IMG/VR virus record: IMGVR_UViG_3300034069_002177
Span: 1 to 64,000 of that record
Direction: 5' to 3' (one strand)
DNA: 64,000 bases
DNA from: a virus
Taxonomy: Duplodnaviria > Caudoviricetes
Every line of letters starts with the position of its first letter. The first letter of the stretch is position 1. Both the position numbers and the translations under genes were made by a program. Below, one piece after another: positions 5,423 to 41,087 of this stretch. Below the pieces are notes generated by a model. It ran no database searches and was not told the DNA's origin. It worked only from the letters and a program-made list of their open reading frames with translations.

Positions 5423-5467
5423 GGAAACAGCCCCTGATTGGTTTGCCCCCAGTTAGGGGCTGTTTCC
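5423..5467 (+). terminator. Hairpin terminator
   Basis: GGAAACAGCCCCT ... AGGGGCTGTTTCC followed by a T-rich tract. Confidence 0.7.
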
Positions 5468-5564: not shown

Positions 5565-6941
5565 ATGAATAGAAGTCTATTACATGATGATAGAGCCGAA
5601 AACTCCATCATGCAGACCATCACCATCGCAGTCTCAGCTATTCTTATCGCCGCTGGACTCGTGACCGCTCCTGGTCTCATCAACAACGCCCGCGATAACA
5701 ACGCGACGGGCGATCTTTCCAACATAGCCTATTCCGAAGAGGGTTATTTGGGTGATACGGGTAAATACACCGCTAACATCCAAAGCGATGCTAGCGGAGA
5801 AGATGCACTAGACGGGCACGTTACCGAAAACGGCACCGTTCTTACTCACTACACCACGAGCGACAAGGTGACTCTCAGTGCAGTCGTGTGTAAAGGTAAT
5901 GAGCAAGGATACCTGCTCAGAGCAATCTCATCTTCTTCTCACGTCTTTTACCGTTCCTCCGAATCATCGAACACAAGTTCAGACCTAGCCCAAATTACCC
6001 TCTCGGCGTGTCTCACCCCCGAAGACCTCATCAGCATTGGTGTGACTGCTCCTCCAGGAGGTGACTATGCGAATGATCTTCTTGGTACTACCTCATATGC
6101 ATCCGGCTTGGGACATAACGACCCAAACGAAGGTGGCTTTGCCGGAAGTAGCCTCGATGTAGCTAATGTGTTGAAGAAGGCTAATTTTGCCAACACCAAT
6201 ACAGTTGTCTATGACGATCCTATAAACGCCACTTTGGTTGGTAATGACTACAGTGATACCCCGATAGAGTTTTACGTCGGTTCTAAGAGCGTTAGTAAGT
6301 ACAACGGCACTGTGTCACTCTTCAGTTATGTCGGAACAGGACCAAATGCAGGTAAAGCATCTGGCGTTTACGGATTCATCGATCCACAAATTGATTCCAT
6401 TTCAGATTGGTCGGGTCTTTTTTCGGGCAATGGTTCCGCCCACATCACTATCCAAGGAAAATCTATCGTTATCAAAATACCCGCCTACATGTATGACATC
6501 AACGACTTTGATGCCACGGGTTACACAGACTCGGGTGCAGACCTATCAACCAGAGATTCTGGTAGCGCCGTTTTCGCATCGGATTCAGGTAAATATTCAA
6601 TCGCTGCCCTCATCGATACCGATCAACTCAACAGCACAGCCTTCGCCTACTACAACAAGGCGGCAGGTGGCGCAGCTTTCCAAACCAAGGTTCACGACGC
6701 TCAATTGCAGTACAAAGCGCCTGGAGAAAGCACATACTCCACGGTGGCAACTATAGAAGGAAGAGTCGGATTCGATGGCATTCAGTTGGCAAACAACGAT
6801 GTTGTTGCTGGTCCCTACTTTGCCTCGGCTGAGCCCTTTGACCTGCCAGCAGGGAATTATAACGGAGGTACATGGCGCATCAAATGTAGCTTTTATGGAG
6901 CGGATTACACAATCACAGGAGGAATTGGCTTCAATGGTTAA
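5565..6941 (+). CDS. Type IV pilin-like protein with large C-terminal head domain
   Basis: DDRA|ENSIMQTITIAVSAILIAAGLVTAPGLINNARDNNAT; 38 residues identical to the major pilin at 31065; about 300 aa of extra domain. Confidence 0.8.
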   Translation: MNRSLLHDDRAENSIMQTITIAVSAILIAAGLVTAPGLINNARDNNATGDLSNIAYSEEGYLGDTGKYTANIQSDASGEDALDGHVTENGTVLTHYTTSDKVTLSAVVCKGNEQGYLLRAISSSSHVFYRSSESSNTSSDLAQITLSACLTPEDLISIGVTAPPGGDYANDLLGTTSYASGLGHNDPNEGGFAGSSLDVANVLKKANFANTNTVVYDDPINATLVGNDYSDTPIEFYVGSKSVSKYNGTVSLFSYVGTGPNAGKASGVYGFIDPQIDSISDWSGLFSGNGSAHITIQGKSIVIKIPAYMYDINDFDATGYTDSGADLSTRDSGSAVFASDSGKYSIAALIDTDQLNSTAFAYYNKAAGGAAFQTKVHDAQLQYKAPGESTYSTVATIEGRVGFDGIQLANNDVVAGPYFASAEPFDLPAGNYNGGTWRIKCSFYGADYTITGGIGFNG

Positions 6942-8343
6942 TTCACCTAGAGGTATTTGGTTACGAGATGATGCCGAAAACAGCATCATGCAGACGATTA
7001 CGATTGCCGTATCGGCAATCTTGATTGCAGCCGGTTTAGTAACGGCTCCAGGACTTATCAACAACGCTCGGGATAACAACGCGACGAATGACCTGTCAAA
7101 TATTGCCTACTCCGAAGAAGGGTACCTTGGCGATACCGGCACCTACACCGCTGATATCAGCAGTACAACTTCTCAGGACTCCCTAAACGGTCATACCACC
7201 GAGAACGGTACCCGTATCAAGTACACAATGAGTGACAAGGTTGTGAACAGCGCCGTAGTGTGTACGGGAAAAGTGCAGGGGTACTTGTTGAAATCCGTTT
7301 CCTCGTCTACGCACGTTTTCTACCGTTCGTCAGAGTCTAGTGCCACATCAAGCAACATCGCAGATATCACGATTCCTTCCTGTCTCTCCGCCGCTGATTT
7401 GGCGAGCATCGGAATTCTTCCTTCCGCACCTTCTGTCCCCGGTTCCGCATTGCTTCCTCAAACGGCATTTGCTAGTAGTGTGGGTGGAACGAGCGGTTCA
7501 GAGTTGCTTACTAACGGCAGCTATGAAGTAGGTCAAAAAATCAAGAGCTACGGCTTAACGTCAGGGTACGACTATGTACAAGATGGACTTGGAAACGTAT
7601 CCACTTATGACAATGACAGCGATGATTTATCCGTTCCTGCCCAGAATCTTTCCTCCATTACTGTTTTTGATGGTGGCGTTCAGGTTGCTAAGTTCGACTC
7701 AATCGTTCAACTTGCCTACGCAACTGGAACGGGCGATAATTCAGGTAAATCCTGGGGACAGTTTGCATTGAACATGCCTGCAATTCATGACATCGCTACT
7801 TGGTCGAAGATTTATTCGGGGACCGCCGAGATGCATGTCCGCTTCCAAGGCAAAGATGTTGTATTGCCCATTTACCAACCTAGCGGCGACATGAGTCGAT
7901 TTGATTCGACGGGCTACACCAACAACGGCGCTAATCTGTCCATCTCTGACACTAAGAGTGAGATATTCAAAGACCCACAATCCTCCGGTCAATCTATAGT
8001 GATTGGTCTAAACCCTGATGACATCAAGGGTACAAATGCAGACTTCTATCTCAACAAGGTGAACGCATCAGATTCAACCTTCTCGCCCTTATTGCGAGCC
8101 ACAGTGTCTTACAAGGCGTCAGGCGACAGTGCGTATTCTGATGTAGGAACTATTTACGGCAAGCTGTCGAAGAATGGTGTTTATTCGGATGGCACCAGCG
8201 CTGGTCCGCTTTCGTTCTCCAACTACAATGTCTACCAAACCCTGCAACTTCCTGATAACGACTATTCTGCCGGTACTTGGAAGGTCACGTTCAACTACGA
8301 AGGCTCTGACTACTCGATTACAGGAAGCATCGCAGTCAAGTAA
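6934..8343 (+). CDS. Type IV pilin-like protein with large head domain, paralog of 5565
   Basis: Same 38-aa pilin helix; C-terminal domain aligns with the 5565 protein (FD[AS]TGYT.[SN]GA.LS, GTW.......G.DY.ITG.I). AGGAGG at 6917-6922 supports ATG 6934 over 6775. Confidence 0.8.
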   Translation: MVNSPRGIWLRDDAENSIMQTITIAVSAILIAAGLVTAPGLINNARDNNATNDLSNIAYSEEGYLGDTGTYTADISSTTSQDSLNGHTTENGTRIKYTMSDKVVNSAVVCTGKVQGYLLKSVSSSTHVFYRSSESSATSSNIADITIPSCLSAADLASIGILPSAPSVPGSALLPQTAFASSVGGTSGSELLTNGSYEVGQKIKSYGLTSGYDYVQDGLGNVSTYDNDSDDLSVPAQNLSSITVFDGGVQVAKFDSIVQLAYATGTGDNSGKSWGQFALNMPAIHDIATWSKIYSGTAEMHVRFQGKDVVLPIYQPSGDMSRFDSTGYTNNGANLSISDTKSEIFKDPQSSGQSIVIGLNPDDIKGTNADFYLNKVNASDSTFSPLLRATVSYKASGDSAYSDVGTIYGKLSKNGVYSDGTSAGPLSFSNYNVYQTLQLPDNDYSAGTWKVTFNYEGSDYSITGSIAVK

Positions 8344-11701: not shown

Positions 11702-11768
11702 GTACCCATGAGTGAGGCGAGCAACACAGGAGTCTCACCACAAGACGCGAATAAGAAGGAAGAACAAA

Positions 11769-12608
11769 ATGAGCATCACGTTTCTCGCTAAGGTTCCCAG
11801 CGGATGGCAGATCCACTCGCGGCTCGAAGTAATGCACTTCCCCGCAGGAGAGGTCCACATCAAGATGCCGGAGAACTTCGATGAGGTTCCCATCGCCGCC
11901 TATGTGACGGGCGCGGACCTCAACGACTACATGGCTCTGGCTCAGTGGGCGGATATCGTTCACCAGCAGGGCTACAAGGCAACTGCCTTCATCCCCTACC
12001 TCCCCGGCGCTCGTCAGGACCGTGGTATGCCGTTCGGTGCCAAGGTGTACGCCGACTTCATCAACGCTGCCGGACTCGACAAGGTGGTGTGCTTCGACCC
12101 GCACAGCCACGTCATGCCGGAACTGGTGAACAACCTCACCATCATCAACTCGGACCACGTTCTCAAGAATGCCGTCCTCGGTCGTTCGGGTATCATCGGT
12201 GGCTACGTTGGCGTCATCTGCCCCGACGAGGGCGCTCATGAGCGTACCGAGCGAGTTGCCAAGACGCTCAACCTTCCGGTGTTCTACGCCAAGAAGCACC
12301 GCGACTTCCAGACCGGCAAGCTGAACGGCTTCGAATGCGAGCCGGTTCCCGATGAGGGTCGCCTTCTCGTTGTCGATGACATCTGCGACGGCGGCGGAAC
12401 GTTCATGGGTCTTGCTGACGCAATCGGTATCGACCGGTCGCGCCTCTCGCTTTGGGTCAGCCACGGCGTATTCTCGGGTAAGGCTGGTCAGTTGACCGAG
12501 AAGTACGGTCAGATTTACACCACCGACTCGCACCCCGGTGCAGGTCGCGAGGATGTTGCGGCACACGTCACGCCTCTTCTCCCCTACCTCATCCGCGAGG
12601 CTCTGTAA
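11769..12608 (+). CDS. prs: Ribose-phosphate pyrophosphokinase-like protein (Prs; NARP1 Adps-like)
   Basis: FPAGEVHIK, PYLPGARQDR, FDPHS, PDEGA, VVDDICDGGGTF, SHGVFS; RBS AAGGAAG supports ATG 11769. Confidence 0.85.
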   Translation: MSITFLAKVPSGWQIHSRLEVMHFPAGEVHIKMPENFDEVPIAAYVTGADLNDYMALAQWADIVHQQGYKATAFIPYLPGARQDRGMPFGAKVYADFINAAGLDKVVCFDPHSHVMPELVNNLTIINSDHVLKNAVLGRSGIIGGYVGVICPDEGAHERTERVAKTLNLPVFYAKKHRDFQTGKLNGFECEPVPDEGRLLVVDDICDGGGTFMGLADAIGIDRSRLSLWVSHGVFSGKAGQLTEKYGQIYTTDSHPGAGREDVAAHVTPLLPYLIREAL

Positions 12609-12614
12609 CTACTG

Positions 12615-12646
12615 ACTACCTCTCCTATTGCTGTAGGGGAGGTAGT
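12615..12646 (+). terminator. Hairpin after prs-like gene
   Basis: ACTACCTCTCCTA ... TAGGGGAGGTAGT stem. Confidence 0.55.
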
Positions 12647-12660
12647 TCGGTGTTGCCCCC

Positions 12661-12718
12661 AAAAGTTTTTCTCAATTCGAGCTTTTTAGTCGCATTGACT
12701 AAAAATAAGTGCTATGGT
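12661..12718 (+). promoter_or_regulatory. 58-bp promoter/operator copy 2 with NrtR-type palindrome
   Basis: Same palindrome at 12683-12705 and TGcTATGGT upstream of the Nampt-like gene. Confidence 0.8.
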
Positions 12719-12747
12719 TTAACCAACAACAAGGAAGGTCACACAAA

Positions 12748-14253: not shown

Positions 14254-14262
14254 GCAATACCT

Positions 14263-14295
14263 CGGGGTGGTAGGTCGTCATGACTTGCCACCCCG
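14263..14295 (+). terminator. GC-rich hairpin after nadV-like gene
   Basis: CGGGGTGG...CCACCCCG stem; no clear U-tract. Confidence 0.45.
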
Positions 14296-14324
14296 CCCCG
14301 TAACAATCACAGAAGAAGTACATC

Positions 14325-14789
14325 ATGCAAGAAGTAAGAGCCCCAGAAATAGCACCCCGTGCTGACGTATTCCTCGCAGGAGGAATCCTTGGAGCCGATG
14401 ATTGGCAACCTCGTGCAGTAGCAATGCTGAACGGTCAAGATGTCATTGCCTACAACCCCCGTCGCATAGAACCATTCACAAGGGATATGCATGAGTTTCA
14501 GGTGCGATGGGAACATGACGCACTTCGTAATGCTGACTCCATCCTGTTCTGGTTCCCACCCGAAACGCTATGCCCCATTACGCTATTTGAACTGGGCGTA
14601 TGGTCCAATACCAACAAGCCTATTTACGTAGGCACTCATCCCGACTACGATCGTAGAGCGGATGTCATCATCCAACTAGGTCTATCTCGACCTGATGTAA
14701 TCGTTCGAGACAACCTAGAAGATGTCGTGAAAGACTTCATCGATTCACACAACAACCACAAGATCTACGATTACACCAAGAAGGACTAA
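14325..14789 (+). CDS. Nucleoside 2-deoxyribosyltransferase-like (N-glycosidase fold) protein
   Basis: VFLAGGI, WQ, YNPRR, QVRWEHDAL..ADSILFWFP, CPITLFELG. Confidence 0.8.
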   Translation: MQEVRAPEIAPRADVFLAGGILGADDWQPRAVAMLNGQDVIAYNPRRIEPFTRDMHEFQVRWEHDALRNADSILFWFPPETLCPITLFELGVWSNTNKPIYVGTHPDYDRRADVIIQLGLSRPDVIVRDNLEDVVKDFIDSHNNHKIYDYTKKD

Positions 14790-14794
14790 GACCA

Positions 14795-24573: not shown

Positions 24574-26292
24574 ATGGCTTTTGAACCAACAGAGTCTATG
24601 AAGGCTAATGATTGGCTGAATGGAATCTTCAAGGAAGCTTTCGAACGGGGCGCTAGCGATATCTTCATCGACGCAGTGTATGACGCCCAGGGAGAAATCA
24701 TGTCCTTGGAGCCAGAACTCCGAATTGATGGATGGAACATCAAGGAAGCTCCGCTTACTGATATCCGTGCTAGTCAGGTAATCGTCCTTATCAAGAACGA
24801 ATCAGAAATGGGTACCTCGGCGCTTAATGCCCCCGAGGAAGGTCGATTCCCCTTCAAGTATGAAGGTGGAGCAAACAACCCCGAGGACGCAGAATCGCTC
24901 GACGTTCGTGTCACTATCTTCCCCACGGTTACTGGGGAGTTCATCTCGATGCGTATTCCTCCCGTAGGTGCGCTTCCTGAACTCAGTAGTCTCGGTATTT
25001 CTGAGTACAACATGGGTCGCTTGAAGCAGTTGCTCTCTCGACCTCAGGGTCTTATCGAACTTGCAGGACCGATGGGTTCTGGTAAGACGACCACTATGTA
25101 CTCCGTCATGAAGGTTATCGGTGGAGAGCGTAGCTCGGTTGTCACTGTTGAAGACCCGAAGGAGCGTACGCTTGAAGGTGCCCGCCAGATGGTTATTAAC
25201 CCTCGTGGTGGTATGACCTATGCTGCTGTTCTGAAGTCTCTACTCCGCGTTGTCATGGACGCCATGCTTATCGGTGAAATTCGAGACATGGACACCGCCT
25301 CTGCTGCCGTGAAGTTCGCTACTTCCGGCACCAAGGTTCTCTCGTCCATCCACTCGGGTGATCCTGTTTCGGCTATTGCTCGTACTATCGACCTTTCCGG
25401 TGCTGGTGTTATCGCTGCGATGGAAGCACTCAGCGGCATCATGTCACAGCGACTTATTCGTACATTCCACGACTTCTGCAAGGGTAAGGGTTGTGTTGGT
25501 TGTGAGGGTACCGGCTATAAGGGTCGTATGCCTGTTCACGAGGTTCTCATCAACAGTTCCAGCATCACCGACCTTATGCTTCGTGGTGCTCCACGTAATG
25601 AGGTCCACAAGGCTGCACGTGATGAAGGTATGATTTCCTTCCACGAAGATGCTGACCGTTTGCTCGAAGCGGGTCGTACCGATGTCAAACAGATCGAAGA
25701 CTCGATTGGTTTCGATACCCGCGTACGTCCCAAGGTAGTAGACCTTTCTCCCGCAAGTGCGGATCATCGTCGTGAAGAGGAAGAGCAGGCTCGTCGAGTG
25801 CAGCAGGCTGCTATTACCGGTCGTGGTATTGCCGAAGAGCCTGAAGTACAGCGTCGCGTTCCTGCATCTGCTCCGGCACCTGCTTCCGCACCTCAGCCTC
25901 AGGGACAGCAGTCTGCTCCTACTCAGCCTCAGCGTCAGGGTGTTCAGCAGCCCCAGCAGGCTCCTGGTCAGCAGCGTCCCCAGGTCGCTCAGCGTCCGGT
26001 ACAGCAGCCTACACAGAATGGTCAGCCCCAACAGCGACCAGTTGGTCAGCCTCAGACGACTCAGCAGCGTGCCGCTCAGCAAGGTGCTGGTGCACCTCCG
26101 CAGGGACACCTTCGTCCCGGTCAGCCTACACAGCCTGGTCGTCCTCAGCAGCGCCCCGCACAACCGCAGGGTCAACAGTCTCCAGTCAGTTCTCAGAAAG
26201 CGCCGCAAAGCGCTCCTGGTCAGGCTAAAATCAACCCACAACAGCCAGTGAAACCAGCCGACCCGCTGAACTGGCTTGAAGAAACCAAGTAA
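24574..26292 (+). CDS. pilB: Type IV pilus assembly ATPase, PilB/GspE-like, with Q/P-rich C-terminal tail
   Basis: PEEGRF, RVTIFPTVTGE.ISMRI, GPMGSGKTTT, TVEDP, IGEIRD, CVGCEGTGYKGR.PVHEVL. Confidence 0.85.
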   Translation: MAFEPTESMKANDWLNGIFKEAFERGASDIFIDAVYDAQGEIMSLEPELRIDGWNIKEAPLTDIRASQVIVLIKNESEMGTSALNAPEEGRFPFKYEGGANNPEDAESLDVRVTIFPTVTGEFISMRIPPVGALPELSSLGISEYNMGRLKQLLSRPQGLIELAGPMGSGKTTTMYSVMKVIGGERSSVVTVEDPKERTLEGARQMVINPRGGMTYAAVLKSLLRVVMDAMLIGEIRDMDTASAAVKFATSGTKVLSSIHSGDPVSAIARTIDLSGAGVIAAMEALSGIMSQRLIRTFHDFCKGKGCVGCEGTGYKGRMPVHEVLINSSSITDLMLRGAPRNEVHKAARDEGMISFHEDADRLLEAGRTDVKQIEDSIGFDTRVRPKVVDLSPASADHRREEEEQARRVQQAAITGRGIAEEPEVQRRVPASAPAPASAPQPQGQQSAPTQPQRQGVQQPQQAPGQQRPQVAQRPVQQPTQNGQPQQRPVGQPQTTQQRAAQQGAGAPPQGHLRPGQPTQPGRPQQRPAQPQGQQSPVSSQKAPQSAPGQAKINPQQPVKPADPLNWLEETK

Positions 26293-26306
26293 GGAAAGCT
26301 ACCTAC

Positions 26307-27980
26307 ATGTCAGACGTAAATTGGGGCACGGGACCAGAAAAGACTCCTAACCCGCAGACTCCCCCTCAGGGACAGCCTATTCAGGGACGACCCGCGCCTA
26401 TTCCTACGCAGGGTGAACAGCCTCTTCGCGGTTTCCCCACTGCTGCTCCCCAGGGTCAGCGTCCGGTACAGCCTCAGCAGGCTCCTGGTCAGCGCCCCGT
26501 ACAGCCAGGTGCTCAGCGTCCGGTACAGCCACAGGTTCAGCCTGGCGCTGCCGTTCGTCCGCCCGCTCAGCAGGTAGGACAGCAGGCTCAGCGTCCCGCA
26601 CAGCAGCCTGTACAGCAGCCTGTACAGCAGCCTGTACAGCAGCCTGTACAGCCTCAGCAGCGACCAGTCCAGCCTGGTTCTGCTCCGGCGCAGCAGGCTC
26701 AACAGGGTCAGTTCGCAACACCTCCAGCTAATCAGCAAGGTGCTGTCTCCATCTCCGGTGCCGCAATCATCGACAATACTCCCGAGGATGTCGAACCCGC
26801 CGAGATGATTCAGTCCAAGCCTGCCGCCCCTGAGAAGCCAGCTTGGTACAAGAAGATCGAAGCTCAGATTATGCTCTGGGCTGAGACCGGTGTTTCCGAC
26901 ATCCAGATGGTTTCCGACAACTATGTGTGGATCGTTGACGACGACAACCACCAGCCAACCTCTCTGTGGTTGACTCGTGAGGATATTCTTCTTCTCGCTG
27001 ACTACTGGGTGCCTGAGAACAAGGCTCTCAATATCACTGGTGGAGCCAAGCACCTTGCCGAAGGGCATGAGGGTACACTTGAAACCGTGCAGACCCTCGG
27101 ACGTTCGTTCGCGTCTGACTCCACGCAGTCATGGCGTTCACGTATCATCTTCCGTCGTCAGGAAAATGGTCTCGGTGTCACGATGCGACTCATTCCGCCG
27201 ACCGTTCCTACGTTGGCTAAGTACCCTCAGCCTCAGCAGATCATGGATCTGTTGAAGGAGAACAACGGTCTCGTCATCGTTTCCGGTCCTACCGGTTCCG
27301 GTAAGACGACGCTTCTCGCCGCGCTTCTCAACGAGTACAACGAGAACAACCACCGTCACATGTACACCATCGAAGACCCGATTGAATTCGTGCACCTTCC
27401 CAAGAAGTCACTTGTCACTCAGCGTGAAGTCGGTCGTGACGTTGATGACTGGGCTGGTGGCATCATGGCTGCCGTTCGTTCAAAGGCTCAGGTAATCATG
27501 ATTGGTGAGCTTCGTGAGCTTGACGCTATCGTCGCTGCTCTTGACGCAGCCAACAAGGGTCACCTTGTGTTTGCAACGTCTCACGCATCTTCGGCTGCTC
27601 AGTGTATCGAAGGTATCGTTGCTCAGTTCCCACCCGGACAGCAGAACCTTGTGCAGAACCGTATTGCTGAGGTCATCAAGTGTGTTATGGTCCAGCGTTT
27701 GGTTCCCGCAACCGATGGAAAGCTCATCGCAGTGCGTGAAATCATGCTTGACCACACCACGACGACTCCTAACATCCGTGCAGGAGACTTCAGCAAGCTC
27801 ACAAACGCGCTAAAAGAGGAAGACGGGATGATTTCTTTCGAGCAATCTCTCTACTACCTTTACGAGGCAGGCAAGATTACTGAAGAAACCGCTCTGAAGT
27901 TTGCTAACATCAAGAACGATCTCGTCTTCAAGATTGACCGTCTCAAAGCGCGTAAGCGTGAAGCCGAATCCCGTCGCTAA
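26307..27980 (+). CDS. pilT: Type IV pilus retraction ATPase, PilT-like, with Q/P-rich N-terminal tail
   Basis: GLVIVSGPTGSGKTT, TIEDPIEFVH, QREVGRD, IMIGELRE, GHLVFAT.HA, GMISFEQSL..L...G.I. Confidence 0.9.
   Translation: MSDVNWGTGPEKTPNPQTPPQGQPIQGRPAPIPTQGEQPLRGFPTAAPQGQRPVQPQQAPGQRPVQPGAQRPVQPQVQPGAAVRPPAQQVGQQAQRPAQQPVQQPVQQPVQQPVQPQQRPVQPGSAPAQQAQQGQFATPPANQQGAVSISGAAIIDNTPEDVEPAEMIQSKPAAPEKPAWYKKIEAQIMLWAETGVSDIQMVSDNYVWIVDDDNHQPTSLWLTREDILLLADYWVPENKALNITGGAKHLAEGHEGTLETVQTLGRSFASDSTQSWRSRIIFRRQENGLGVTMRLIPPTVPTLAKYPQPQQIMDLLKENNGLVIVSGPTGSGKTTLLAALLNEYNENNHRHMYTIEDPIEFVHLPKKSLVTQREVGRDVDDWAGGIMAAVRSKAQVIMIGELRELDAIVAALDAANKGHLVFATSHASSAAQCIEGIVAQFPPGQQNLVQNRIAEVIKCVMVQRLVPATDGKLIAVREIMLDHTTTTPNIRAGDFSKLTNALKEEDGMISFEQSLYYLYEAGKITEETALKFANIKNDLVFKIDRLKARKREAESRR
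26601..26648 (+). repeat. Coding tandem repeat (CAGCAGCCTGTA)x4 = (QQPV)x4
   Basis: Four perfect 12-bp units in the PilT N-terminal tail. Confidence 0.9.
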
Positions 27981-27995
27981 CAAGGAAACAAATAC

Positions 27996-29879
27996 ATGTC
28001 CGATAACGAATACTACGGCTACAAAGCGCCCAAAGCGCCGGAGCCGGTATATGAAGAGCCTACGGGTTCGGATGCTGACCTCAATTCCGATTCATTCGGT
28101 ACGGGTGATGGCACCGATACGCCCTCTCGGCGTGGTCGAAAGACCAAGGAACCTCGTGGTAAGACTCCCCGTGAGCCAAAAGCACTACGCGAAAAGGCTC
28201 CGCGAGAGAAAGCTCCCCGTGTAGACAAGCGTGCTGAGGCTGCTGCTCGCAAGCAGGAAGCCAAAGATCGTGCTGAGGCTCGTAAGGCTCATGCTGCTGA
28301 ATCCAAGCGTGGCGGTAAGAATCTTCGTGAATCTACCCCAGATGTCCAGACGAGTGAGGAAATCAACAGCCCGTTTGATGAGAGCGGTGCCGGTTTCGGC
28401 TCCACCGCTGGTTCTTCTGGATACAACGACGATGCACCGACGCAGGCGTACAACCCTAACTTCGATTCCGTTCTTTCGGGCGAACCTGACCTTGATGGTT
28501 ACGGCGTTCTCCGTGATATCGACTACTCCAACGCTTCGACCGTCAAGGACGAGACCAGTGTTGAAGAGCTAGCTGATGAGGAATACAGCAAGGTTGACGA
28601 CGCTCCCGCCAAGGGCAAGGGTCGCGGACGCGCGCGTGGTAAGAAGCCTGTTACGAAGCGTAGCGATAAGAACGCCAGTATCAAGCCTTCTGTTGCCAGG
28701 CGTGACAGTAAGAAGAACTCCGCTTCTCGTAAGAAGGGTGGAAAGTCCGTACCTGACGATGCTATCAGCGCAATGCGTGGTGTCCCGCTCACTAAGAAGC
28801 AGCGTAAAGACGCTAAGAAGATCGACCCCGTACAGGCTGCGAAGTGTTTCCGTCAGCTTGCATTGATGATGCAGGTATCCCGAGACGAAATCGGTCCTAT
28901 CCGTCGTATTGCTGAGCAGTATAAGGGTAGCCCTATCGGTACTGTTTTCGCTAAGGTCTCCACCGACATGGCTGACAACAACATTTCGTTCTCTGCTGCA
29001 TTCGATAAGCACGGTAAGGTTCTTCCTCAGGTCGTCGTCAGCCTTGTTTCCGTTGGTGCTCGCGCCGGTAAGGAATCTGAGGCTCTCGTCAAGGCTGCAA
29101 CCATCATTCAAGACAATGCCAAGACTGGTAAGCAGGTCAAGTCGGCTCTTTCCGAGCCTTTGTTCACGCTTATCTTGACCGTGTTGTTCCTATTCGTTGT
29201 TCTGTTCGGTATCATCCCTCAGTTCAAGGTCGTGTTCGATACTCTCGGCAAGCCCCTTCCGTTGCTCTCCCAGATTCTGGTGAATGTGTCTACGGTGGTA
29301 GGTTATCTGACGGGTGTTGTTGCGGTAATTGTCATAGCGTGGCTGATTTACTGGAACCAAAAGGGTCGAGATAATGAGGATCTCCGCGTGAAGATCGATA
29401 CGTGGAAGCTGAATATGAAGCCTCACATCTTCGCTGACCTCATGCAGGTTTCGCAGATGTCTCAGGTGTTCGGTAACCTCCACACGCTCCGAGAGATCAA
29501 CATGTCTGAGCGTGACTCACTGATTACCACGGCTCGTTCTACGTCCAACTGGGCTATCCGCCGTCACTTGCTACAGCACGTAGACTTGATGGATAAGGGT
29601 GAAGCTCGATTCAAGGAGCTTGCCAATAACAAGCAACTGTTCCCCATTGACGCGGCATATACACTCATCGTTGGTGAGGATGCCGGTCAGGGTACGCAGA
29701 CTATCGGAATGATGGCTGAGACCTATAAGGAAGAGTCTGAGCTATCAGCCGCGCAGTTGGTTGTGGCTATTGGACCTATCGCTAACGGTGCGGTCGGTTT
29801 GGTCTACATGTTGGTCATGCTCGCGTCCTACCTTCCGGTGTTCGAGATGTACACCAGTATTGGTTCTGTCAACAGCTAA
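27996..29879 (+). CDS. pilC: Type IV pilus platform protein, PilC/GspF-like, with long charged N-terminal extension
   Basis: FRQLALMMQ, FS.AF.KH..V.PQ.VV.LV.VG...G, VKSALSEP, IIPQFKVVF..LGKPLP..SQILV, VGEDAG, GP; follows pilT. Confidence 0.85.
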   Translation: MSDNEYYGYKAPKAPEPVYEEPTGSDADLNSDSFGTGDGTDTPSRRGRKTKEPRGKTPREPKALREKAPREKAPRVDKRAEAAARKQEAKDRAEARKAHAAESKRGGKNLRESTPDVQTSEEINSPFDESGAGFGSTAGSSGYNDDAPTQAYNPNFDSVLSGEPDLDGYGVLRDIDYSNASTVKDETSVEELADEEYSKVDDAPAKGKGRGRARGKKPVTKRSDKNASIKPSVARRDSKKNSASRKKGGKSVPDDAISAMRGVPLTKKQRKDAKKIDPVQAAKCFRQLALMMQVSRDEIGPIRRIAEQYKGSPIGTVFAKVSTDMADNNISFSAAFDKHGKVLPQVVVSLVSVGARAGKESEALVKAATIIQDNAKTGKQVKSALSEPLFTLILTVLFLFVVLFGIIPQFKVVFDTLGKPLPLLSQILVNVSTVVGYLTGVVAVIVIAWLIYWNQKGRDNEDLRVKIDTWKLNMKPHIFADLMQVSQMSQVFGNLHTLREINMSERDSLITTARSTSNWAIRRHLLQHVDLMDKGEARFKELANNKQLFPIDAAYTLIVGEDAGQGTQTIGMMAETYKEESELSAAQLVVAIGPIANGAVGLVYMLVMLASYLPVFEMYTSIGSVNS

Positions 29880-29967: not shown

Positions 29968-30666
29968 ATGCATTTAATGGAACTTTACGACAACGACGTA
30001 TACCTCGGAGCAGGTCTCGCTGCGGTATTCGCTCTCCTGCTCATGGTATTCCTCCCCCGGCTCATGGGGGCTGACGTAAAGCCTCTGAGTGAAACACCTG
30101 GCTACTTCTACTGGTTGGCACCGCTCCTAGCTGCTATTACCGCTGGACTGTTGCAGTTGGTGGACAACGGAAATCAACTCACCATCATCACATGGAGTAT
30201 TGTCGCTGGTATCGGTGCGGTAGCAACCCTGACAGACTTCAAGGACCACCGAGTACCAAACATTCTGGCGTACAACCACTTCGTTCTGGTTATCGTCGCT
30301 GTTCTCGCCAATGCATTCGTCAACAACGAAGTAGGCAACCTTGTCTGGGCTGGTGTCGCTCTGGGTGGGGCTGCAATCCTCACGTTCCTCGGCGTGACGT
30401 TGCTGAAAGTCGGTGTTGGTGACTTCAAGTACATCCCCGTTATCGCCGCCGCATTAGGATTTATCAGTCCGTGGCTTGCGCTCGGGTGGATCATTACGGC
30501 ATACTTGCTCAACTTCGTGTTCGTCATCATTGCGTTCGTGTTCCACAACACGGAGAAGAACGGTCCTCGTTCGAAAGCAATGGCTCCAATGATCCCTCCC
30601 TTCTACTTCGCTCTGTGGGCACTTGTGCCTGTCATTAGCTGGGGTATGATTCAGGCACTAGCGTAA
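29968..30666 (+). CDS. pilD: Prepilin peptidase (A24) lacking the N-terminal Cys/methyltransferase domain
   Basis: Multi-TM; TLTDFKDHRVPN and VGVGDFKY catalytic Asp motifs; PMIPPF C-terminus. Confidence 0.85.
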   Translation: MHLMELYDNDVYLGAGLAAVFALLLMVFLPRLMGADVKPLSETPGYFYWLAPLLAAITAGLLQLVDNGNQLTIITWSIVAGIGAVATLTDFKDHRVPNILAYNHFVLVIVAVLANAFVNNEVGNLVWAGVALGGAAILTFLGVTLLKVGVGDFKYIPVIAAALGFISPWLALGWIITAYLLNFVFVIIAFVFHNTEKNGPRSKAMAPMIPPFYFALWALVPVISWGMIQALA

Positions 30667-31064: not shown

Positions 31065-31574
31065 ATGCTTAACATCAAGTCTCTCGACCTTCGCTCGGAT
31101 GCCGCTGAAAACTCGATCATGCAGACCATCACGATTGCTGTTTCTGCAATCTTGATCGCTGCCGGTCTTGTCACTGCTCCTGGTCTCATCAACAACGCTC
31201 GTGACAACAACGCCACGACCGACCTCGCCAACATCGCCTACGGTGAAGAGTTCAACCTCGCCAACACCGGTACTTATGCAGCCGACCTTGCTACGCTTCA
31301 GTCCAACGCTAACGCAGCAATCGCTGACGGCGGTTCTGGTCCTAAGATCACCGTTTCTGGTGGAACCTGGGACAGCGTAAAGGTCGCTGCTGACGCCAAG
31401 AGCTACACGCTCTACGCAGTCTCACAGTCCGGTAACGTCTTCTCGCGTACCTCTGACAGTGGTGCAACCACCAAGGTTGGAACCTTCTCCTTCACTGGTA
31501 CCGGTTCTGCCAAGGCTCTCGGCACCTTCACTGGTACCGGAACCCTCGTTGCTGGCGACTTCACCAAGAACTAA
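31065..31574 (+). CDS. Probable major type IV pilin
   Basis: DAA|ENSIMQTITIAVSAILIAAGLVTAPG; 169 aa; AAAAGGAAA RBS; strongly biased codons; flanked by hairpins, suggesting its own transcription unit. Confidence 0.8.
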   Translation: MLNIKSLDLRSDAAENSIMQTITIAVSAILIAAGLVTAPGLINNARDNNATTDLANIAYGEEFNLANTGTYAADLATLQSNANAAIADGGSGPKITVSGGTWDSVKVAADAKSYTLYAVSQSGNVFSRTSDSGATTKVGTFSFTGTGSAKALGTFTGTGTLVAGDFTKN

Positions 31575-31727: not shown

Positions 31728-32288
31728 GTGCAACTTTTTTCACACTTCAAGAAATGGTCGCGTATTGATTCCGCCGAGAACTCAATCATGCAGACCATCA
31801 CGATTGCTGTTTCAGCGATCACTATTGCCGCTGGTATTACTTCTATGCCAAACATCGTGAACGCTCAGCGTGACAATAAGGTTCGTGTTGATTTGGGTGA
31901 AGTTGCCGCAGGCGAGGATTATTACAACACCGGGACCGGAACCTACACTACCGTATTGTCCTCCATCTCCGGTAAGACCGGTACAGGCGGAACTAAGATC
32001 AATCTTACCCCCAACACTTGGACGCTAATCAAGCAGACATCTACTACAGGATATGGCGTTCTCGGTGTCTCTCAAAATGGCAATGTATACGTCATCAACG
32101 GAAGCAACAAGACTCCATTGTGGGTGGGCACAGTCACTTTCAACGGAAACATCTCCGCAACCAAGACCATCAAGTCCGGTAGTTTCAAGTTGCGCACTAC
32201 TGGTCCTTCCGCCCCTCAAATCGCCCAAATGATGAGCGATAGTGGTTTTACGACAACTGATGCGCAGACAGCGGTCCGTAACAAGTAG
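31728..32288 (+). CDS. Type IV pilin, paralog of the major pilin
   Basis: DSA|ENSIMQTITIAVSAITIAAG; head aligns with 31065 (GVSQNGNVY vs AVSQSGNVF). Confidence 0.8.
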   Translation: MQLFSHFKKWSRIDSAENSIMQTITIAVSAITIAAGITSMPNIVNAQRDNKVRVDLGEVAAGEDYYNTGTGTYTTVLSSISGKTGTGGTKINLTPNTWTLIKQTSTTGYGVLGVSQNGNVYVINGSNKTPLWVGTVTFNGNISATKTIKSGSFKLRTTGPSAPQIAQMMSDSGFTTTDAQTAVRNK

Positions 32289-32372
32289 TGATTGCCCTGC
32301 ATTACCCGCATTTTTCACTTCTCGTCTCGTCCATCTGAGATAATGAAGCACATCCCTGCCAGGAAAGACCGA

Positions 32373-34019
32373 ATGAAGCAATCAGCTACCCACACGCCTA
32401 AGACGCATCAGCGGAGGTTTATCGACATCCTCCGTGGTTTCATGCGCGATGATCGAGGTGACACGCCAATTCAGGTAATGATTGGTGCGTTCATCGCTAT
32501 CCTTCTCATCGTCCCTTCGATGACGTTCTTTGTGAACTTCCTCGCTACCACTTCGGTTACTGCTGTAGATGCAGAACGTTCCAAGGATATGCGTGCGTGG
32601 TCTATTGACGAGTTCGAAACAAAGCCTTGGGATGAGGTTCTTGCAACGTTCAAGTCCAACAAGATCGAGACCGGCGATGTCGCTACCAAGTTCAATTTCG
32701 GTATCAAGTACGCTGTTGACAACGTAGATGCTTCCGGTGGATATGTCGTCAAGCTTGTTGCGCCTCAGGCAAACGTGGATAACGCTACTTGTAACGACCC
32801 TCGCGCACACAAGACCAACGTTTGCTTGTACTACCAATACACCAAAACCCCTACACTTTCCGAAGGTCTTCCGCCAACGTGGAACGGCATGAACTACGGT
32901 AACGCTGATCTTCAGCCCGCCAGCGGAACTACTTCTCCCGCTCTTGCTGTCACCACGAACCGCACCATCAACGTCGGTACCTTCAATGGCTGCTCGGCTC
33001 TCACCCCTGACAAAATGCGTATCTCCTTCAAGTGGGTAAGCACGAACGGTATCCGTCCTACTTCGGTCCAGCACTTGGTTATCGGCGGGAAACTCTATGA
33101 GACCATTCCGCTGTCGTCGTCCTCTTCCAGTAACACTCTCTGGTATGCAGCGACCATCAACAAGCCTCAGGCATCTACGTGTTACAGCGCAGAGCAGGTT
33201 CGTATTGTTGTTGACAATGGTGCCAAGGGTACACTGAGCGACCTTTACGTCTCGCCTCTTCTCAACCAGTGCACGGCTACCGCAACCGACTCGAACTCCT
33301 GTGTCGCTGCCGGTAACGACACTTCCGACGCCAACATCCCGAACATCGTCTCGAACCCTGTATGGGCAACTGACGGTCTTACGTGGTACTTCAGCTTCGA
33401 CAGCCCCCTCACGGGTACCGCTGTTTCCAAGTACCAGATTCGTGGTACGGGAACCGAGTCCTCTTGTAACACCAATGTCACCATCATCAACGAAGGTAAC
33501 GCCAGCAACGGCACAGACAACGTATTCAAAATCGGTAGCTTCAACAGCCTTGCCGATTTGAAGAAGGCGGCTTGTGATCGTTACTATGTCACGTCGCTCG
33601 GTACCAATGGCTACAACAGCGCCGAGGTCAACTTCACTTCCGCGAACATCACCAAGGTTGTCAATGTCGATGGTTCCGGTTCCTCTGCCGCTCCTGCTAC
33701 CCCCACCACTCCGGTTCTTTCTTCGACCGCAACTGGAACCAAGTGGTCGCTCAAGTTCAGCGAAGCCAACATCAGTACCATTGACCACTTCAACGTCACT
33801 GGTAAAGGCACCAACGCCAAGTGTGTGACGACTCAGCAGAGCGTCAACCCTGTGGCAACGAGCGGAAACATCTACTCGTTGGGTACATTTACCAATGAAG
33901 CCGCCATGCGTGCCGGTACATGTGATAGTTTCAAGGTTGTCGCCGTTGGAAACAACGGACAGACGAGCAACCCTGTGACATTCACCACTGCCAGTATCAC
34001 TAATGTCGAAAATCTCTAA
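32373..34019 (+). CDS. Minor pilin-like protein with Cys-rich beta domains
   Basis: RDDRG|DTPIQVMIGAFIAILLIVP; two C-terminal repeats (W...F...I..F...G.GT...C); AGGAAAG RBS before ATG 32373. Confidence 0.75.
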   Translation: MKQSATHTPKTHQRRFIDILRGFMRDDRGDTPIQVMIGAFIAILLIVPSMTFFVNFLATTSVTAVDAERSKDMRAWSIDEFETKPWDEVLATFKSNKIETGDVATKFNFGIKYAVDNVDASGGYVVKLVAPQANVDNATCNDPRAHKTNVCLYYQYTKTPTLSEGLPPTWNGMNYGNADLQPASGTTSPALAVTTNRTINVGTFNGCSALTPDKMRISFKWVSTNGIRPTSVQHLVIGGKLYETIPLSSSSSSNTLWYAATINKPQASTCYSAEQVRIVVDNGAKGTLSDLYVSPLLNQCTATATDSNSCVAAGNDTSDANIPNIVSNPVWATDGLTWYFSFDSPLTGTAVSKYQIRGTGTESSCNTNVTIINEGNASNGTDNVFKIGSFNSLADLKKAACDRYYVTSLGTNGYNSAEVNFTSANITKVVNVDGSGSSAAPATPTTPVLSSTATGTKWSLKFSEANISTIDHFNVTGKGTNAKCVTTQQSVNPVATSGNIYSLGTFTNEAAMRAGTCDSFKVVAVGNNGQTSNPVTFTTASITNVENL

Positions 34020-34034
34020 GGAAGGAGACGGACA

Positions 34035-36215
34035 ATGCTAATCAAACTCAACGATTCCATGCGCAAGTTCTGGCGCATGGACCGCTCTTCATGGGGAAAG
34101 TTCCTACGCGGAGATCGTGCGTCGATGACGCAGGTCATGCTCATCAGCTTGATGATTCCCACGACCATTGCGCTCATTGTCTCCACGGCATTGACTCAGT
34201 TGTTCGTGCAATACCAGGATAACCGCAAGACGAATATGACTTCGGCTACCCAGGTTGCTTCCGCGTACCTTCTGAATGACATCAACACTAAGTTGCCGTC
34301 ACGATACGCCGCAATGACTCCTGCCCAGCTAAAGGCTGAGACTGCTGAGACCATCTCGACCGTGAATGCGACCACCTATGCAAAAACGTTCAACGTTGAT
34401 GCCAACGGTTGGATTACGGCTACTTTCGCGGTCAACCTTACTGGTAGTCCCGGTGATCCAGGAACCTACTCTGTGCAGTACCGCCCTACTTCGGCAACTG
34501 TCTTCAAGGGTTTCGACCCGACTACCAAGCGTCCCCTCTGGTCTTTCACCAGCGGTTCGACTGATGCCACTAAGTCTTTGACTCCTCTCGGTCTTTATGA
34601 GCAGGTTCCGACCGTTTCATCTGTTGGCGATTACCCGACCATCAACCGTCCCGGTGTGAAGGCTTCGGCTCCGTTGAATCTTCGTATTCTGCGTTCCAAG
34701 CAGTTCGGTCAGGTTCTGGCATGGGACAAGCCCGCTAACGCCGCCGACTCGCTTCTCACCGGATACCGTGTTGACTCCACCAAGAACACGGCTTGCTACA
34801 ACCTCGCGCCAGAAACCGGTACGGACGTATACGCTGACGGTTATATTACGCTTACCAAGGATTACAATTCCACCGATGTCTCGTCATGGAAATGTGGTTC
34901 TTCTGATCCTACCAACCGTGTATCCGTTCGCGGTATTGGTATCGCCGGTACCGGTGTTGCCGCATTCGTTGACTTGAAGACTGTTGTCACCTATGACTTG
35001 GACAACCTCAAGCCTTCCGTTCCCGCTAACGTGACATATGCCAAGACTGGTGCAAGTGACGTTCTTAGTTGGGACAACCAGACCTGTAACTTCGGTTACA
35101 ACATCCAGTTCCGCGTCTCTAAGACCCGTCAAGCTAATGTCACTGGTAACTACGGAATTACTGCCGACTGGTCCAACTACGTTGCTTCCGGTGGTCGTTA
35201 CAGCTTCGTCATCCCTGCCACGAATGTCACCGCTGGTGGTACGAATGGTTGGAAGGTCGAGGCTCGCTGTCTCAACAATACTTTTGGTGCATCCGACAGT
35301 AGTGGTCTTTCCAACGAAGCTACAACTGTTTCGCCAATCACGACCACTCCTAATCTCGCTAATGCGAAAATTAGTGGAACGACCAACTTCGGTACCGCTT
35401 CATGGTCCGCAGTCACTAACTGTGTCGCACCCGCCGTCGCTCAGTACCGCGTTTCGTACACCTTGCAGAATGGCGTAGCTGCTGATGATGTCATCAAGGA
35501 CTGGGGTGTCAATTACACGTCCGTTGGTGTCACAAGTAAGATCGGTACCAAGGCTGCTGTCGAGGTAGATGCGCGATGTGCTGCTGCCAATGGTGGTTCG
35601 GCATTGTATGGTCCGACCGCGACCGATACTTCCGACCCGTGGCTTGCAGCAGTCGGTGCTCCTACCGGAACACTGTCATTGACTGACAATAACGTCAATG
35701 TCGTTACCTACAAGGGTATGACTTGTGCTGCTGGTTCTACCATTCAGTATTACGTCACTCAGACCGTGACCAACGGTAGTGCTTCGGCAACTGTTCTTCA
35801 GAACTGGGGTGCAGCCGGTACCGATACCGCAACCACATCTCAGGGTGGAAATCAAACAGTAACCGCCAAGGCTCGTTGTGCTGTTGGTACCGTCTACTCG
35901 GCAAATAGCGCTACGGCAACTACGTCATGGACACGACCGGTCAGCGCTCCCGCATGGACCAAATATCCTGGTCTTTCGGGCTACCGTACATTCTCGTGGG
36001 CAGCTAGCTGTTCCGCAGGAACCGTTCAGTACCAGTTTGATGTCTACATCCAAGGCGGTGCTAAGCACGTCACTGGTGGATGGAACGGAACGACCCAGAT
36101 TAACGATTCCAACTTCGGCGGTGTCGGTTGGGGTTCTTACGGTGGAACAATTCAAGCTCGTTGTAACGTGAGTGGTGTAGTATCACCTGCCATCGTCGGT
36201 TCATCGAACGGCTAA
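34035..36215 (+). CDS. Large minor pilin/adhesin with FN3-like Cys-bridged repeats
   Basis: RGDRA|SMTQVMLISLMIPTTIALIVS; repeated W...C......QYR and V.ARC motifs. Confidence 0.75.
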   Translation: MLIKLNDSMRKFWRMDRSSWGKFLRGDRASMTQVMLISLMIPTTIALIVSTALTQLFVQYQDNRKTNMTSATQVASAYLLNDINTKLPSRYAAMTPAQLKAETAETISTVNATTYAKTFNVDANGWITATFAVNLTGSPGDPGTYSVQYRPTSATVFKGFDPTTKRPLWSFTSGSTDATKSLTPLGLYEQVPTVSSVGDYPTINRPGVKASAPLNLRILRSKQFGQVLAWDKPANAADSLLTGYRVDSTKNTACYNLAPETGTDVYADGYITLTKDYNSTDVSSWKCGSSDPTNRVSVRGIGIAGTGVAAFVDLKTVVTYDLDNLKPSVPANVTYAKTGASDVLSWDNQTCNFGYNIQFRVSKTRQANVTGNYGITADWSNYVASGGRYSFVIPATNVTAGGTNGWKVEARCLNNTFGASDSSGLSNEATTVSPITTTPNLANAKISGTTNFGTASWSAVTNCVAPAVAQYRVSYTLQNGVAADDVIKDWGVNYTSVGVTSKIGTKAAVEVDARCAAANGGSALYGPTATDTSDPWLAAVGAPTGTLSLTDNNVNVVTYKGMTCAAGSTIQYYVTQTVTNGSASATVLQNWGAAGTDTATTSQGGNQTVTAKARCAVGTVYSANSATATTSWTRPVSAPAWTKYPGLSGYRTFSWAASCSAGTVQYQFDVYIQGGAKHVTGGWNGTTQINDSNFGGVGWGSYGGTIQARCNVSGVVSPAIVGSSNG

Positions 36216-38333: not shown

Positions 38334-41087
38334 ATGTTCACTGAACTTCGCAAGCGTCTTGTCTTTGCGCACCGCAATGATAGAGGTGAAAGTAGTATAA
38401 TGGTAATTATATCACAACAATTATCACTTCTCGTTTTGGCGGCACTTGCCGGACTTATGTTCATCCTTATTACCGGTGGCACCAAGATTCAAGCTGAAAA
38501 TTCGGCTCAAACGGAACTTCGTGTAGCCAACCGAGCATTCCTTTCCGATGTCGATAACGCATCAACTATCTTCGTTCAAGATGACACGAAGATGACTCTA
38601 TCGAGCACTAATTTCTTGAAAGACCCCACGGACGCAACGAAATACCTCTGTCGTTCAAGCTCGTGGTACATCGCCCCTGCTTCGGCTGATGTCAAGAAGG
38701 CTCGTAATGACAACACCTTGATGTCCCTCCACAACGACATCACAATTCACAAGACCGCTTCCTGCGCCAGCCCTGCTTCCTCTACGCAGGCTCGTACCGC
38801 AGTAACTGCAATTGCTCAGGATGCTACGTTCCTCTACAAGAACATTGCAGGCGTGCCGCTCAACTTCTCCAACGGTATTGTCACCAACTTCCAGAGCATT
38901 GACGCCAACAATGACGGCACCCTCTCGACCGCCGAGATCAACAACTTCCGTACCGCCAACAACGTTGACTCTTGGTACACCGATGATGAGGCAATGCGCG
39001 AGACTCCTAAGGTTATCGACGCGAAGATGACTGCTGTTCTCCCCATCACCGAGAACAACGTCGCAGAGTTCAAGGCAACTACCAACGATGCCGAGACCGA
39101 GCTTGTTGGTAATGACACCAACGTCACCGACCCTGGTGGAGAGCAGACTCGTTGGATTCCTAACGCTGTCAGCACCCCAATCCTCGCTCGTTCGACCACG
39201 ACCGGTCCTGTTGTCGGTGGCGTTCACGAAGGCATCCAGATTTCCTGGGCACCTCGTCCTGCCGCTGAGTGTGCCCCTACCCAGAAGCTCACTTACTCGT
39301 GGATTCTGACGAACCTCCGTACCAAGCATGTCTCTTCCGGTCAGACGACGGCGAACAATGTCACTGTTCAGACGAGCACTGGTCCTGCTGAAGTATGGAA
39401 CGGTGGAAAGTATTCTGCTTCTGTCGCTGCTCGTTGTAACGACATCGACGGTCAGAGCCCGACTACAACTGTTCCTTCTTATACCTTGCCACTTCCTGAT
39501 GTGCAGATTCATAACACTACTTCCAATGCTGCTGAAACCAGCACGGTTGTTTCTTGGGACAAGGCTTCCTCTGACCCCACGACGAAGTACACCGTCACCT
39601 ACACCCCTGCTAAGGTGTCCAATAGCTACAAGTTGGACAAGAGTGCTACCCCCGATGTGTACCGTTACTATTCGACAGCTAATGAGCCTACTGCGAACAT
39701 CTCAGGTGCTCCTACCTCCGCGTTGACGATTACTCACACAAAAAATAAGGTCACTCCTGGGTTCCCTGACATCTACTACGTCCGTGCGTCCACAACAGAT
39801 AGTCCGAACACTGGTGGTGACCGTTCCGCTGCCAACTACATCTACCGCTCGGATGAAACCGCCCACCCGAACATCAATGCCATTGATGCGAACAACGCTA
39901 CCTGGGTTGGTTCTGCCTGTGCTACTGGAAACACCAAGCTCTACCGCTCGGACGACTCCAATACTTACGGTGGTAAAAATACGACTGTGTTGACTGGTTC
40001 TAACGGTACCGGTGGCGCTACAGGTACCAACCGTAACTACGGAACCATCAATCAGGGTTCCAAGGTGTGGGTCCGTGTCGATCAGCGTTGTAAGACCATC
40101 TACACGGATGCTCCTACGAACAACCAGTCGGCTGCAAGTCTTAGCCCTTGGGGTGCAGATGAGACCGCTTCCTACGTTCGACCAATTAGCGTTCCCGCTC
40201 GTCCCACCAACCCTACTAACGTCTACGTTGGACACGGTAATGGTTCGAACGCTCAGACCGCATGGAACGCTGTTGCTTGCCCCACCGGCACCAACATCTC
40301 CTACGGTCACCGTTACGCTCGCGTGAACTCAAACAACGGTTCCTTCGGAGCTACTGAGATCACTGCTACCCGCCGTACGATTGCTCACAATGAAGGTCCG
40401 GGTGGCTTCTACGTCTGGGCTGTCTTTGCTAAGTGTTCTTCGAGTGCTTCTGGAACCAACTTGCATGCTCAGAGTGGCGACGCTTCGAACTCGTACTACA
40501 CGGACGTTCCCAACCCGACCCGTGCACCTGCTATCACGCGTAGCGTTGCCAGTACCCCAATCAACACTTCGGGTACCGTTTACGCCTCTGCGGGTGGTTG
40601 TGTCGCTAACACCGTCTGGTCTTGGAACAGCAACCCCGCTGGAACCTACAGCTACTCCACCAACGGAACTCGTACCTACTATGGTACCGGTCACTGCTTG
40701 GGTGCTAACGGTCGCACCTCGCCGGGTACGTCGTCTGACAACACCAACATCACGTGGTACACCCCAGCACCTAGCACTCCTGGTTCTGCTGGCGGAGTTT
40801 ACGTTATGACTTGTCAGAACGATGGAAGCCGCAGCGGATTCTCCGGTACTGCTAACTGGAGCGCATCGTCATACGCAACTAGCTACACCGTTACTATCTA
40901 CTACAAGAACCGCGCTGGTGGTACTTCAAGCCTGAGCTACACCACCTCGGGTACGAGTGAGTCGTTCGGTACCGGTTCTAGTGCTGGTGGTCCTAATGCG
41001 ACCGTTTCGGTTACTGCTCATGGTCCTGGTGGTACTTCTGGAACAGTTAGCAATTCACTAACTCTCATTGCCGGTGGTTGTCAGTAA
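38334..41087 (+). CDS. Very large pilin-like adhesin with EF-hand loop and FN3-like repeats (PilY1-like role inferred)
   Basis: RNDRG|ESSIMVIISQQLSLLVLAALAGLMFILI; DANNDGTLSTAE loop; Thr/Ser/Gly-rich repeats with paired Cys; AAAAGGAAAA RBS before ATG 38334. Confidence 0.8.
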   Translation: MFTELRKRLVFAHRNDRGESSIMVIISQQLSLLVLAALAGLMFILITGGTKIQAENSAQTELRVANRAFLSDVDNASTIFVQDDTKMTLSSTNFLKDPTDATKYLCRSSSWYIAPASADVKKARNDNTLMSLHNDITIHKTASCASPASSTQARTAVTAIAQDATFLYKNIAGVPLNFSNGIVTNFQSIDANNDGTLSTAEINNFRTANNVDSWYTDDEAMRETPKVIDAKMTAVLPITENNVAEFKATTNDAETELVGNDTNVTDPGGEQTRWIPNAVSTPILARSTTTGPVVGGVHEGIQISWAPRPAAECAPTQKLTYSWILTNLRTKHVSSGQTTANNVTVQTSTGPAEVWNGGKYSASVAARCNDIDGQSPTTTVPSYTLPLPDVQIHNTTSNAAETSTVVSWDKASSDPTTKYTVTYTPAKVSNSYKLDKSATPDVYRYYSTANEPTANISGAPTSALTITHTKNKVTPGFPDIYYVRASTTDSPNTGGDRSAANYIYRSDETAHPNINAIDANNATWVGSACATGNTKLYRSDDSNTYGGKNTTVLTGSNGTGGATGTNRNYGTINQGSKVWVRVDQRCKTIYTDAPTNNQSAASLSPWGADETASYVRPISVPARPTNPTNVYVGHGNGSNAQTAWNAVACPTGTNISYGHRYARVNSNNGSFGATEITATRRTIAHNEGPGGFYVWAVFAKCSSSASGTNLHAQSGDASNSYYTDVPNPTRAPAITRSVASTPINTSGTVYASAGGCVANTVWSWNSNPAGTYSYSTNGTRTYYGTGHCLGANGRTSPGTSSDNTNITWYTPAPSTPGSAGGVYVMTCQNDGSRSGFSGTANWSASSYATSYTVTIYYKNRAGGTSSLSYTTSGTSESFGTGSSAGGPNATVSVTAHGPGGTSGTVSNSLTLIAGGCQ

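Follow-up and report, generated by a model that had tools for sequence, protein, structure and literature searches.

Accessory modular pilins with the helix of the inferred major pilin suggest an adhesin library on a probably conjugative giant actinobacterial element

The window analysed here, 64,000 nucleotides of the IMG/VR record IMGVR_UViG_3300034069_002177, encodes a type IV pilus-like machinery and, at some distance from it, two adjoining genes for large proteins (A and B, Table 1) which begin like the short inferred major pilin M, and we asked why these otherwise different proteins keep the same N-terminal segment. The initial annotation had reported 38 residues common to the three genes, and indeed the block from Ala-1 to Thr37 is identical in all of them, with the codon differences it had quoted (TCC/AGC/TCG and GTC/GTA/GTT). 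It had also described homologous, divergent heads of about 300 residues lying about 25 kb from the machinery. This agrees with the identities between A and B, which amount to 32% in the head, 68% in the remaining pilin domain, 100% in the block and 45% for the whole protein, and with distances of 19 kb from A to pilB and 25.5 kb to M.

Table 1. Features of the window and of related loci
Feature	Position	Strand	Remarks
Terminator-like hairpin between upstream gene and A-B unit	5423..5467	+	contains CCCC-N5-GGGG palindrome
Gene A, modular pilin, 458 aa	5565..6941	+	11-aa leader ending D-R-A, invariant helix, pilin domain, linker, head
Gene A, invariant 38-codon block (Ala-1 to Thr37)	5595..5708	+	
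Head of A	6057..6938	+	relatives found on modular pilins only, one with a different helix type (P0165)
Gene B, 469 aa	6934..8343	+	old tandem duplicate of A (45% identity)
Gene B, invariant 38-codon block	6973..7086	+	
PilB-like extension ATPase	24574..26292	+	TIGR02538 E 2e-59, below cut-off
PilT-like retraction ATPase	26307..27980	+	TIGR01420 E 1e-77, below cut-off
PilC platform protein	27996..29879	+	PF00482 E 1e-21
Prepilin peptidase, both catalytic Asp motifs	29968..30666	+	PF01478 E 8e-5, below cut-off
Gene M, 169 aa, inferred major pilin	31065..31574	+	invariant block 31104-31217
Second short pilin	31728..32288	+	25/38 match to block
Two large core minor pilins	32343..36215	+	own N-termini
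Large core minor pilin, Glu at +1	38334..41087	+	homologs accompany keyed pilins in satellite-like elements
DKNG-type tag starts	window 2364, 4909, 8389, 10078, 16600-17295, 17767, 50648, 60935, 61747, 63270		
Satellite-like loci in Microbacteriaceae	L006:2301-15912, L075:9024-18554, L014:1183-13750, L013, L029, L074		

A and B are sisters in the tree (support 86/90). The ATG of B overlaps the 3' end of A downstream of a GGAGGA ribosome site, and a longer open reading frame from 6775 is not likely to mark its start. The A/B junction is spanned, at 0-4 differences, by contigs assembled in other studies, which rules out an assembly artefact. The pair occupies an orthologous double slot, found in three relatives upstream of the same CCA-enzyme gene; there an A-type head is followed in slot 2 by an unrelated head of 607 residues in the mature protein, and here slot 2 holds the duplicate of A. 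A promoter scan at A-B gave a signal no better than chance. A CCCC-N4-6-GGGG palindrome (window 5447-5459 and 1277-1289) recurs 5' of many dispersed pilin genes in relatives and is possibly an operator or a terminator core.

Identity of the block could reflect a recent duplication, an objection raised already in the initial annotation, or gene conversion with the major pilin gene as donor. Among A, B and M, however, only 88-93 of the 114 nucleotides and 15-20 of the 38 codons are identical, and 13-16 of the 20-22 four-fold sites differ. A pS of 0.60-0.75, compared to 0.79 ± 0.10 for codons drawn randomly from the usage of the element, is accompanied by zero amino-acid changes, and identical DNA runs reach 14-23 nt at most. 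With synonymous sites so near saturation, the identity points to selection on the protein, and the strong purifying selection proposed before for the helix is borne out. These values and the TCC/AGC serine switch practically rule out recent copying, which we regard as highly improbable. Older copying of the module did occur in relatives and may have helped substitutions to spread: neighbouring genes show 80% DNA identity over 437 nt, the pilin module, and then run into different head classes, indicating that heads were grafted.

AlphaFold models of moderate confidence (pLDDT 64 for A, with the helix region under 50, and 59 for M) support the assignment of these proteins as type IV pilins. Residues 34-149 of A best match type IV pilins (all of the top 11 rows; T. 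thermophilus pilins at Z 6.4-6.5, rmsd 2.7-3.0, 72-79 residues aligned), and so does the whole of M (Z 9.0 for PilA4 and 8.1 for N. meningitidis PilV). In these models alpha1C is packed on an antiparallel sheet as in the pilin fold, and sequence and predicted helix agree with the 20-25 mostly hydrophobic residues expected of alpha1N. The pilin domain of A extends to about residue 150 and is joined by a low-confidence linker to a beta-sandwich region reaching residue 458, which is the architecture of modular pilins; the modelled head probably comprises two domains.

The N-terminus deviates from that of known pilins. The leader is short and hydrophilic, with Asp at position -3 and Ala (142) or Gly (9) at position -1, and we infer cleavage after Ala-1 by the peptidase of the element. 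When the register is anchored on the shared residues 29-33, Ala/Gly-1 aligns gapless with Gly-1 of canonical Microbacteriaceae pilins, Glu1 with Phe1 and Met5 with Glu5. Instead of Phe1 and Glu5, Glu1 and Met5 were found in 89 of 89 DNA blocks, and residues 7-33 are conserved at 81-100% across 167 distinct members of the family, called keyed pilins below. Searches gave no hit to a Pfam or NCBIfam pilin model, including the N-methylation motif PF07963. Glu5 is 'often, but not always' present in type IV pilins (PMC10191384), and its charge role may be taken over by Glu1. As a side observation, actinobacterial DNA holds two more non-canonical pilin N-termini without Phe1 and Glu5 (L121:280-1656 and L080), one of them bearing the A/B head.

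A cognate peptidase, ATPases and platform protein are encoded together at 24574-30666 of the window, in a gene order kept in relatives; no methylase domain was found in the peptidase. Keyed pilins share fold and machinery with type IV pilins while lacking Phe1/Glu5, and they appear to work like modular pilins. An acidic first residue also occurs in two of the three core minor pilins. In the adjoining pair it is present in the first and absent from the second, which makes the latter a candidate tip subunit, like the Glu5-less tip subunit known in other type IV pili (PMC10191384). Codon bias is strong in M (0.93) and lower in A and B (0.55), as expected for one major and two low-level subunits; together with the conserved operon position this supports the earlier reading of M as the major pilin. 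A further protein of 158 aa (P0142) combines a lipoprotein-type signal with a globular domain like that of a major pilin, but lacks the invariant helix.

P0142 is encoded on a contig of 654,127 bases, outside of G000, a 202,737-base IMG/VR 'provirus' cut whose proteins are recorded on that contig, evidently the parent of the record of the window. G000 carries 65 tRNA/tmRNA genes as well as VirB4-like, FtsK-like and Replic_Relax genes, and the element is probably a giant conjugative actinobacterial one, whose pilus may have a conjugative role. The tmRNA tag, the hosts of satellite-like elements and the nearest cultured plasmids indicate an actinobacterial host, probably of the Microbacteriaceae. 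A phage structural protein is disfavoured, as M had no match in 50,697 phage records and no terminase match was found in G000 or in three Curtobacterium plasmids; G000 covers just part of the element, so that absence of a terminase from the whole does not follow, and a distant terminase-like gene has been reported for one of these plasmids, pCPAA3 (PMC8929003). A chromosomal origin was rejected as well: among 401 Microbacteriaceae genomes the family occurs only in a metagenome-assembled genome (MAG) with a satellite-like locus, the other matches inspected being distant and mostly canonical pilins. The window also holds an NAD salvage cluster (11712-16062; PRPP synthetase-like, NAMPT, NrtR, nucleotidase), which is syntenic in an 805-kb relative and may counter NAD-depleting defences. 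A DKNG-type tag is shared by the N-termini of many unrelated proteins of the window and is common in related elements too.

A and B are not the only large-headed carriers of the block, and the earlier picture of three genes has been superseded by a library of 15-25 genes with a non-canonical signal. A protein search with A returned 124 matches; among the 120 listed, 119 match the block at 32-38 of 38 residues, and one truncated protein was present. G000 contains a fourth 38/38 copy at position 82056, and a diverged copy near 113400 (29/38) adds to the second short pilin of the window. Comparing the number of such cassettes in related elements, as the initial annotation had proposed, gave lower bounds of at least 15 keyed pilins for the 654-kb contig (12 from the search with A, M, the second short pilin and the copy near 113400) and at least 20 for the 805-kb relative, with matches assigned to an element by the length of their contig; in one 10-kb stretch, nine follow each other in tandem. 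The heads fall into about 45 clusters, with 8 among the 12 of the 654-kb contig and 13 among 19 accessory members of the 805-kb relative. NHL, BNR, PARCEL, He_PIG, Ig-like and CBM_4_9-like domains were found among them, and the proposed adhesin-like character of the variable heads is supported across the family by the NHL, BNR, CBM-like and PARCEL folds. A non-exhaustive literature search returned no description of this family.

For the head of A and B itself, family searches gave neither a family nor a ligand motif, and a search of 1.8 billion representatives yielded a single further relative (E 9e-10), whose pilin part has a third helix type. Foldseek against PDB and viral models and VIA and Atlas shape and feature searches led to weak Ig/FnIII-like matches only (Z about 5 or less, TM under 0.4), so that from the model the head can be called neither a known nor a new fold.

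Judged from the sequences, the helix behaves as an element-specific assembly key. In sample Ga0308161, T9S and G26S occur in 12 of 12 pilins seen, including the major pilin of the operon, with a common element demonstrated for the eight pilins on one 41-kb contig; other lineages keep G26, except in three diverged pilins. Three circular Curtobacterium plasmids of 546-608 kb (pS16, D40 and pCPAA3; records NZ_CP126274.1, NZ_CP126255.1 and CP018784.1, loci L087-L120) gave 12-20 matches each to another pilin family, annotated as hypothetical. They resemble the present element in their dispersed paralogs, a near-constant non-canonical helix and homologous heads (up to 48% identical to heads of keyed pilins), and differ in the helix sequence, which is of the TDPILV type and 80-87% conserved, compared to 98% in the 805-kb element. 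Their PilB-like ATPases show 34% identity. The paper discussing pCPAA3 does not mention pili (PMC8929003). In pS16, two adjoining pilus gene clusters apparently have their own pilin type each.

Keyed pilins also occur apart from the machinery, on small satellite-like elements. Parts of one module recur in Lacisediminihabitans FW035, Frigoribacterium 9N and four metagenomic loci: a YkuD-like gene is present in all six, together with one keyed pilin or two, a homolog of the minor pilin at 38334 in five, and replicase, FtsK or resolvase genes in several. Within these loci no PilB, PilC or PilD was in view near the keyed pilin, which fits the use of the machine of a giant element in trans. Cognate PilC (63-95% identity) was found in metagenome assemblies only, and the best PilC of the MAG with such a locus reached just 26%.

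Taken together, we favour, with a rough probability of 0.55, that A and B are low-abundance accessory modular pilins belonging to a gene-encoded adhesin library on a retractile pilus for the capture of recipients. The peptidase would cut both after Ala-1, and PilB and PilC would insert them in trans into the filament of M, probably at positions along the shaft, from which the head would hang on its flexible linker. Selection would keep the helix constant, as both packing on the major pilin and contact with the machine depend on it, and new heads would be grafted onto this key, or kept on it, by duplication and recombination. More weakly, the 15-25 heads may bind different cell-wall or surface ligands, and retraction may pull recipient cells in for conjugation. 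By analogy, processing and co-assembly with M are quite likely, as the N-terminally identical PilE1 and PilE2 of S. sanguinis co-polymerise (PMC10628169). Placement in the shaft is less sure, since in S. sanguinis modular pilins are too bulky to fit anywhere but at the tip (10.1101/2021.01.27.428410). The purpose of the library is the least sure part, and recipient capture is preferred to surface adhesion, phage evasion or display on an anchor by analogy with PilV of TP114 and PilX1/PilX2 of Saccharibacteria. Tentatively, these pili may even represent an undescribed type IV class of giant actinobacterial plasmids with the acidic residue at position 1 rather than 5, in which each element would lock 15-25 adhesins to a helix key of its own for picking mates, and small satellites would copy that key in order to place their adhesins on the pilus of a helper.

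The same assembly might instead serve to attach the host cell to the surfaces of leaves, litter or biofilms, which we consider rather unlikely. The best DNA match is a plant metagenome (RNA data sets did not appear among the matches listed, which speaks neither way), the strains carrying the Curtobacterium plasmids were isolated from maize root and from the field in California, and CBM-like and propeller heads could bind plant glycans; yet Saccharibacteria pilins attach to actinobacterial cell walls through heads of similar fold (10.64898/2026.10.06.756255), and the keyed pilin beside FtsK and YkuD-like genes on satellite-like mobile elements fits a role in transfer. That the pilin module is a mere membrane anchor or export carrier, with proteins staying in the membrane or being shed, is improbable. 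In its favour, pilins reside in the membrane between processing and assembly (PMC4471445), A and B are encoded at a distance from the machinery and large heads may clash in the shaft, but a plain anchor would need neither 38 residues identical to the major pilin nor their lineage-wide co-substitution.

An antigenic module, as suggested in the initial annotation, or an anti-phage one, in which heads mask the pilus or act as decoys for pilus-specific phages, is equally improbable. Between orthologous accessory heads, dN/dS is 0.09-0.12 in comparisons with enough differing sites, compared to 0.6-0.9 for the globular part of the major pilin and 0.06-0.08 for PilB (pairwise Nei-Gojobori values from few pairs), indicating conserved functions of the heads rather than hypervariable antigens, with the globular domain of M as the fast evolver. 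Some support comes from this domain and from one slot-1 head with dS 2.2 between two close elements, against 0.15-0.8 for the flanking genes, a mosaic pattern which suggests allele exchange. Head types persist across distant elements, however, and a search for direct or inverted repeats flanking A-B gave none that would suggest a switch. Antigenic variation by pilE/pilS uses silent cassettes without a 5' end, DNA homology for conversion and a hypervariable surface; here we found complete genes, saturated synonymous sites and heads under purifying selection. As a separate observation, the globular domain of M is just 42-48% identical between elements with 87-90% identical PilB, which suggests phage or other pressure on the shaft.

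Among known systems, two modular pilins of S. sanguinis, PilB with a vWA and PilC with a lectin domain, likewise join a pilin module, a linker and a grafted binding domain on a monoderm pilus (10.1101/2021.01.27.428410, PMC10628169). In that species the pil locus encodes both proteins, which have a class III signal and are core subunits located at the tip, whereas here 15-25 dispersed paralogs bear the helix of the major pilin, without Phe1/Glu5, on a mobile element. N-termini of the non-core minor pilins of Neisseria resemble that of the major pilin. These proteins (PilV, PilX and ComP) are dispensable and distributed along the filament (PMC10191384), and they rank among the best structural matches of M, but they are small single-domain products of three genes with canonical Glu5. 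PilX1 and PilX2 of Saccharibacteria carry jelly-roll and beta-propeller heads which bind actinobacterial cell walls (10.64898/2026.10.06.756255), and M has structural neighbours among Saccharimonadota pilin clusters whose heads are of the CBM_4_9 or a similar type; these systems are chromosomal, mostly have the canonical N_methyl motif, and are described with one adhesin per pilus, on an epibiont cell. Glu5 mutants cannot form homopolymeric pili (PMC4471445), and a major pilin naturally without Glu5 and with invariant Glu1 bears on the role of this residue in filament assembly. Such families, keyed or of the Curtobacterium type, escape the pilin models of Pfam and NCBIfam, and their members are listed as hypothetical proteins.

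How large Gram-positive plasmids find recipients is poorly understood, and for the IncI plasmids of enterobacteria a choice of partners by means of the pilus has been established. In the PilV shufflon of IncI thin pili (TP114), a plasmid type IV pilus adjoining a conjugation system also combines a constant N-terminus with alternative C-terminal heads, which set recipient specificity (PMC9045228). The shufflon is one gene rearranged by a recombinase, type IVb and enterobacterial; here each head belongs to a complete gene with its own leader, the machinery is type IVa-like and the probable host an actinobacterium, and no inversion sites were seen at A-B. By this analogy the library probably works like the PilV shufflon without recombination, which would make it a candidate monoderm solution, a gene library in place of a shufflon, present in cultured hosts.
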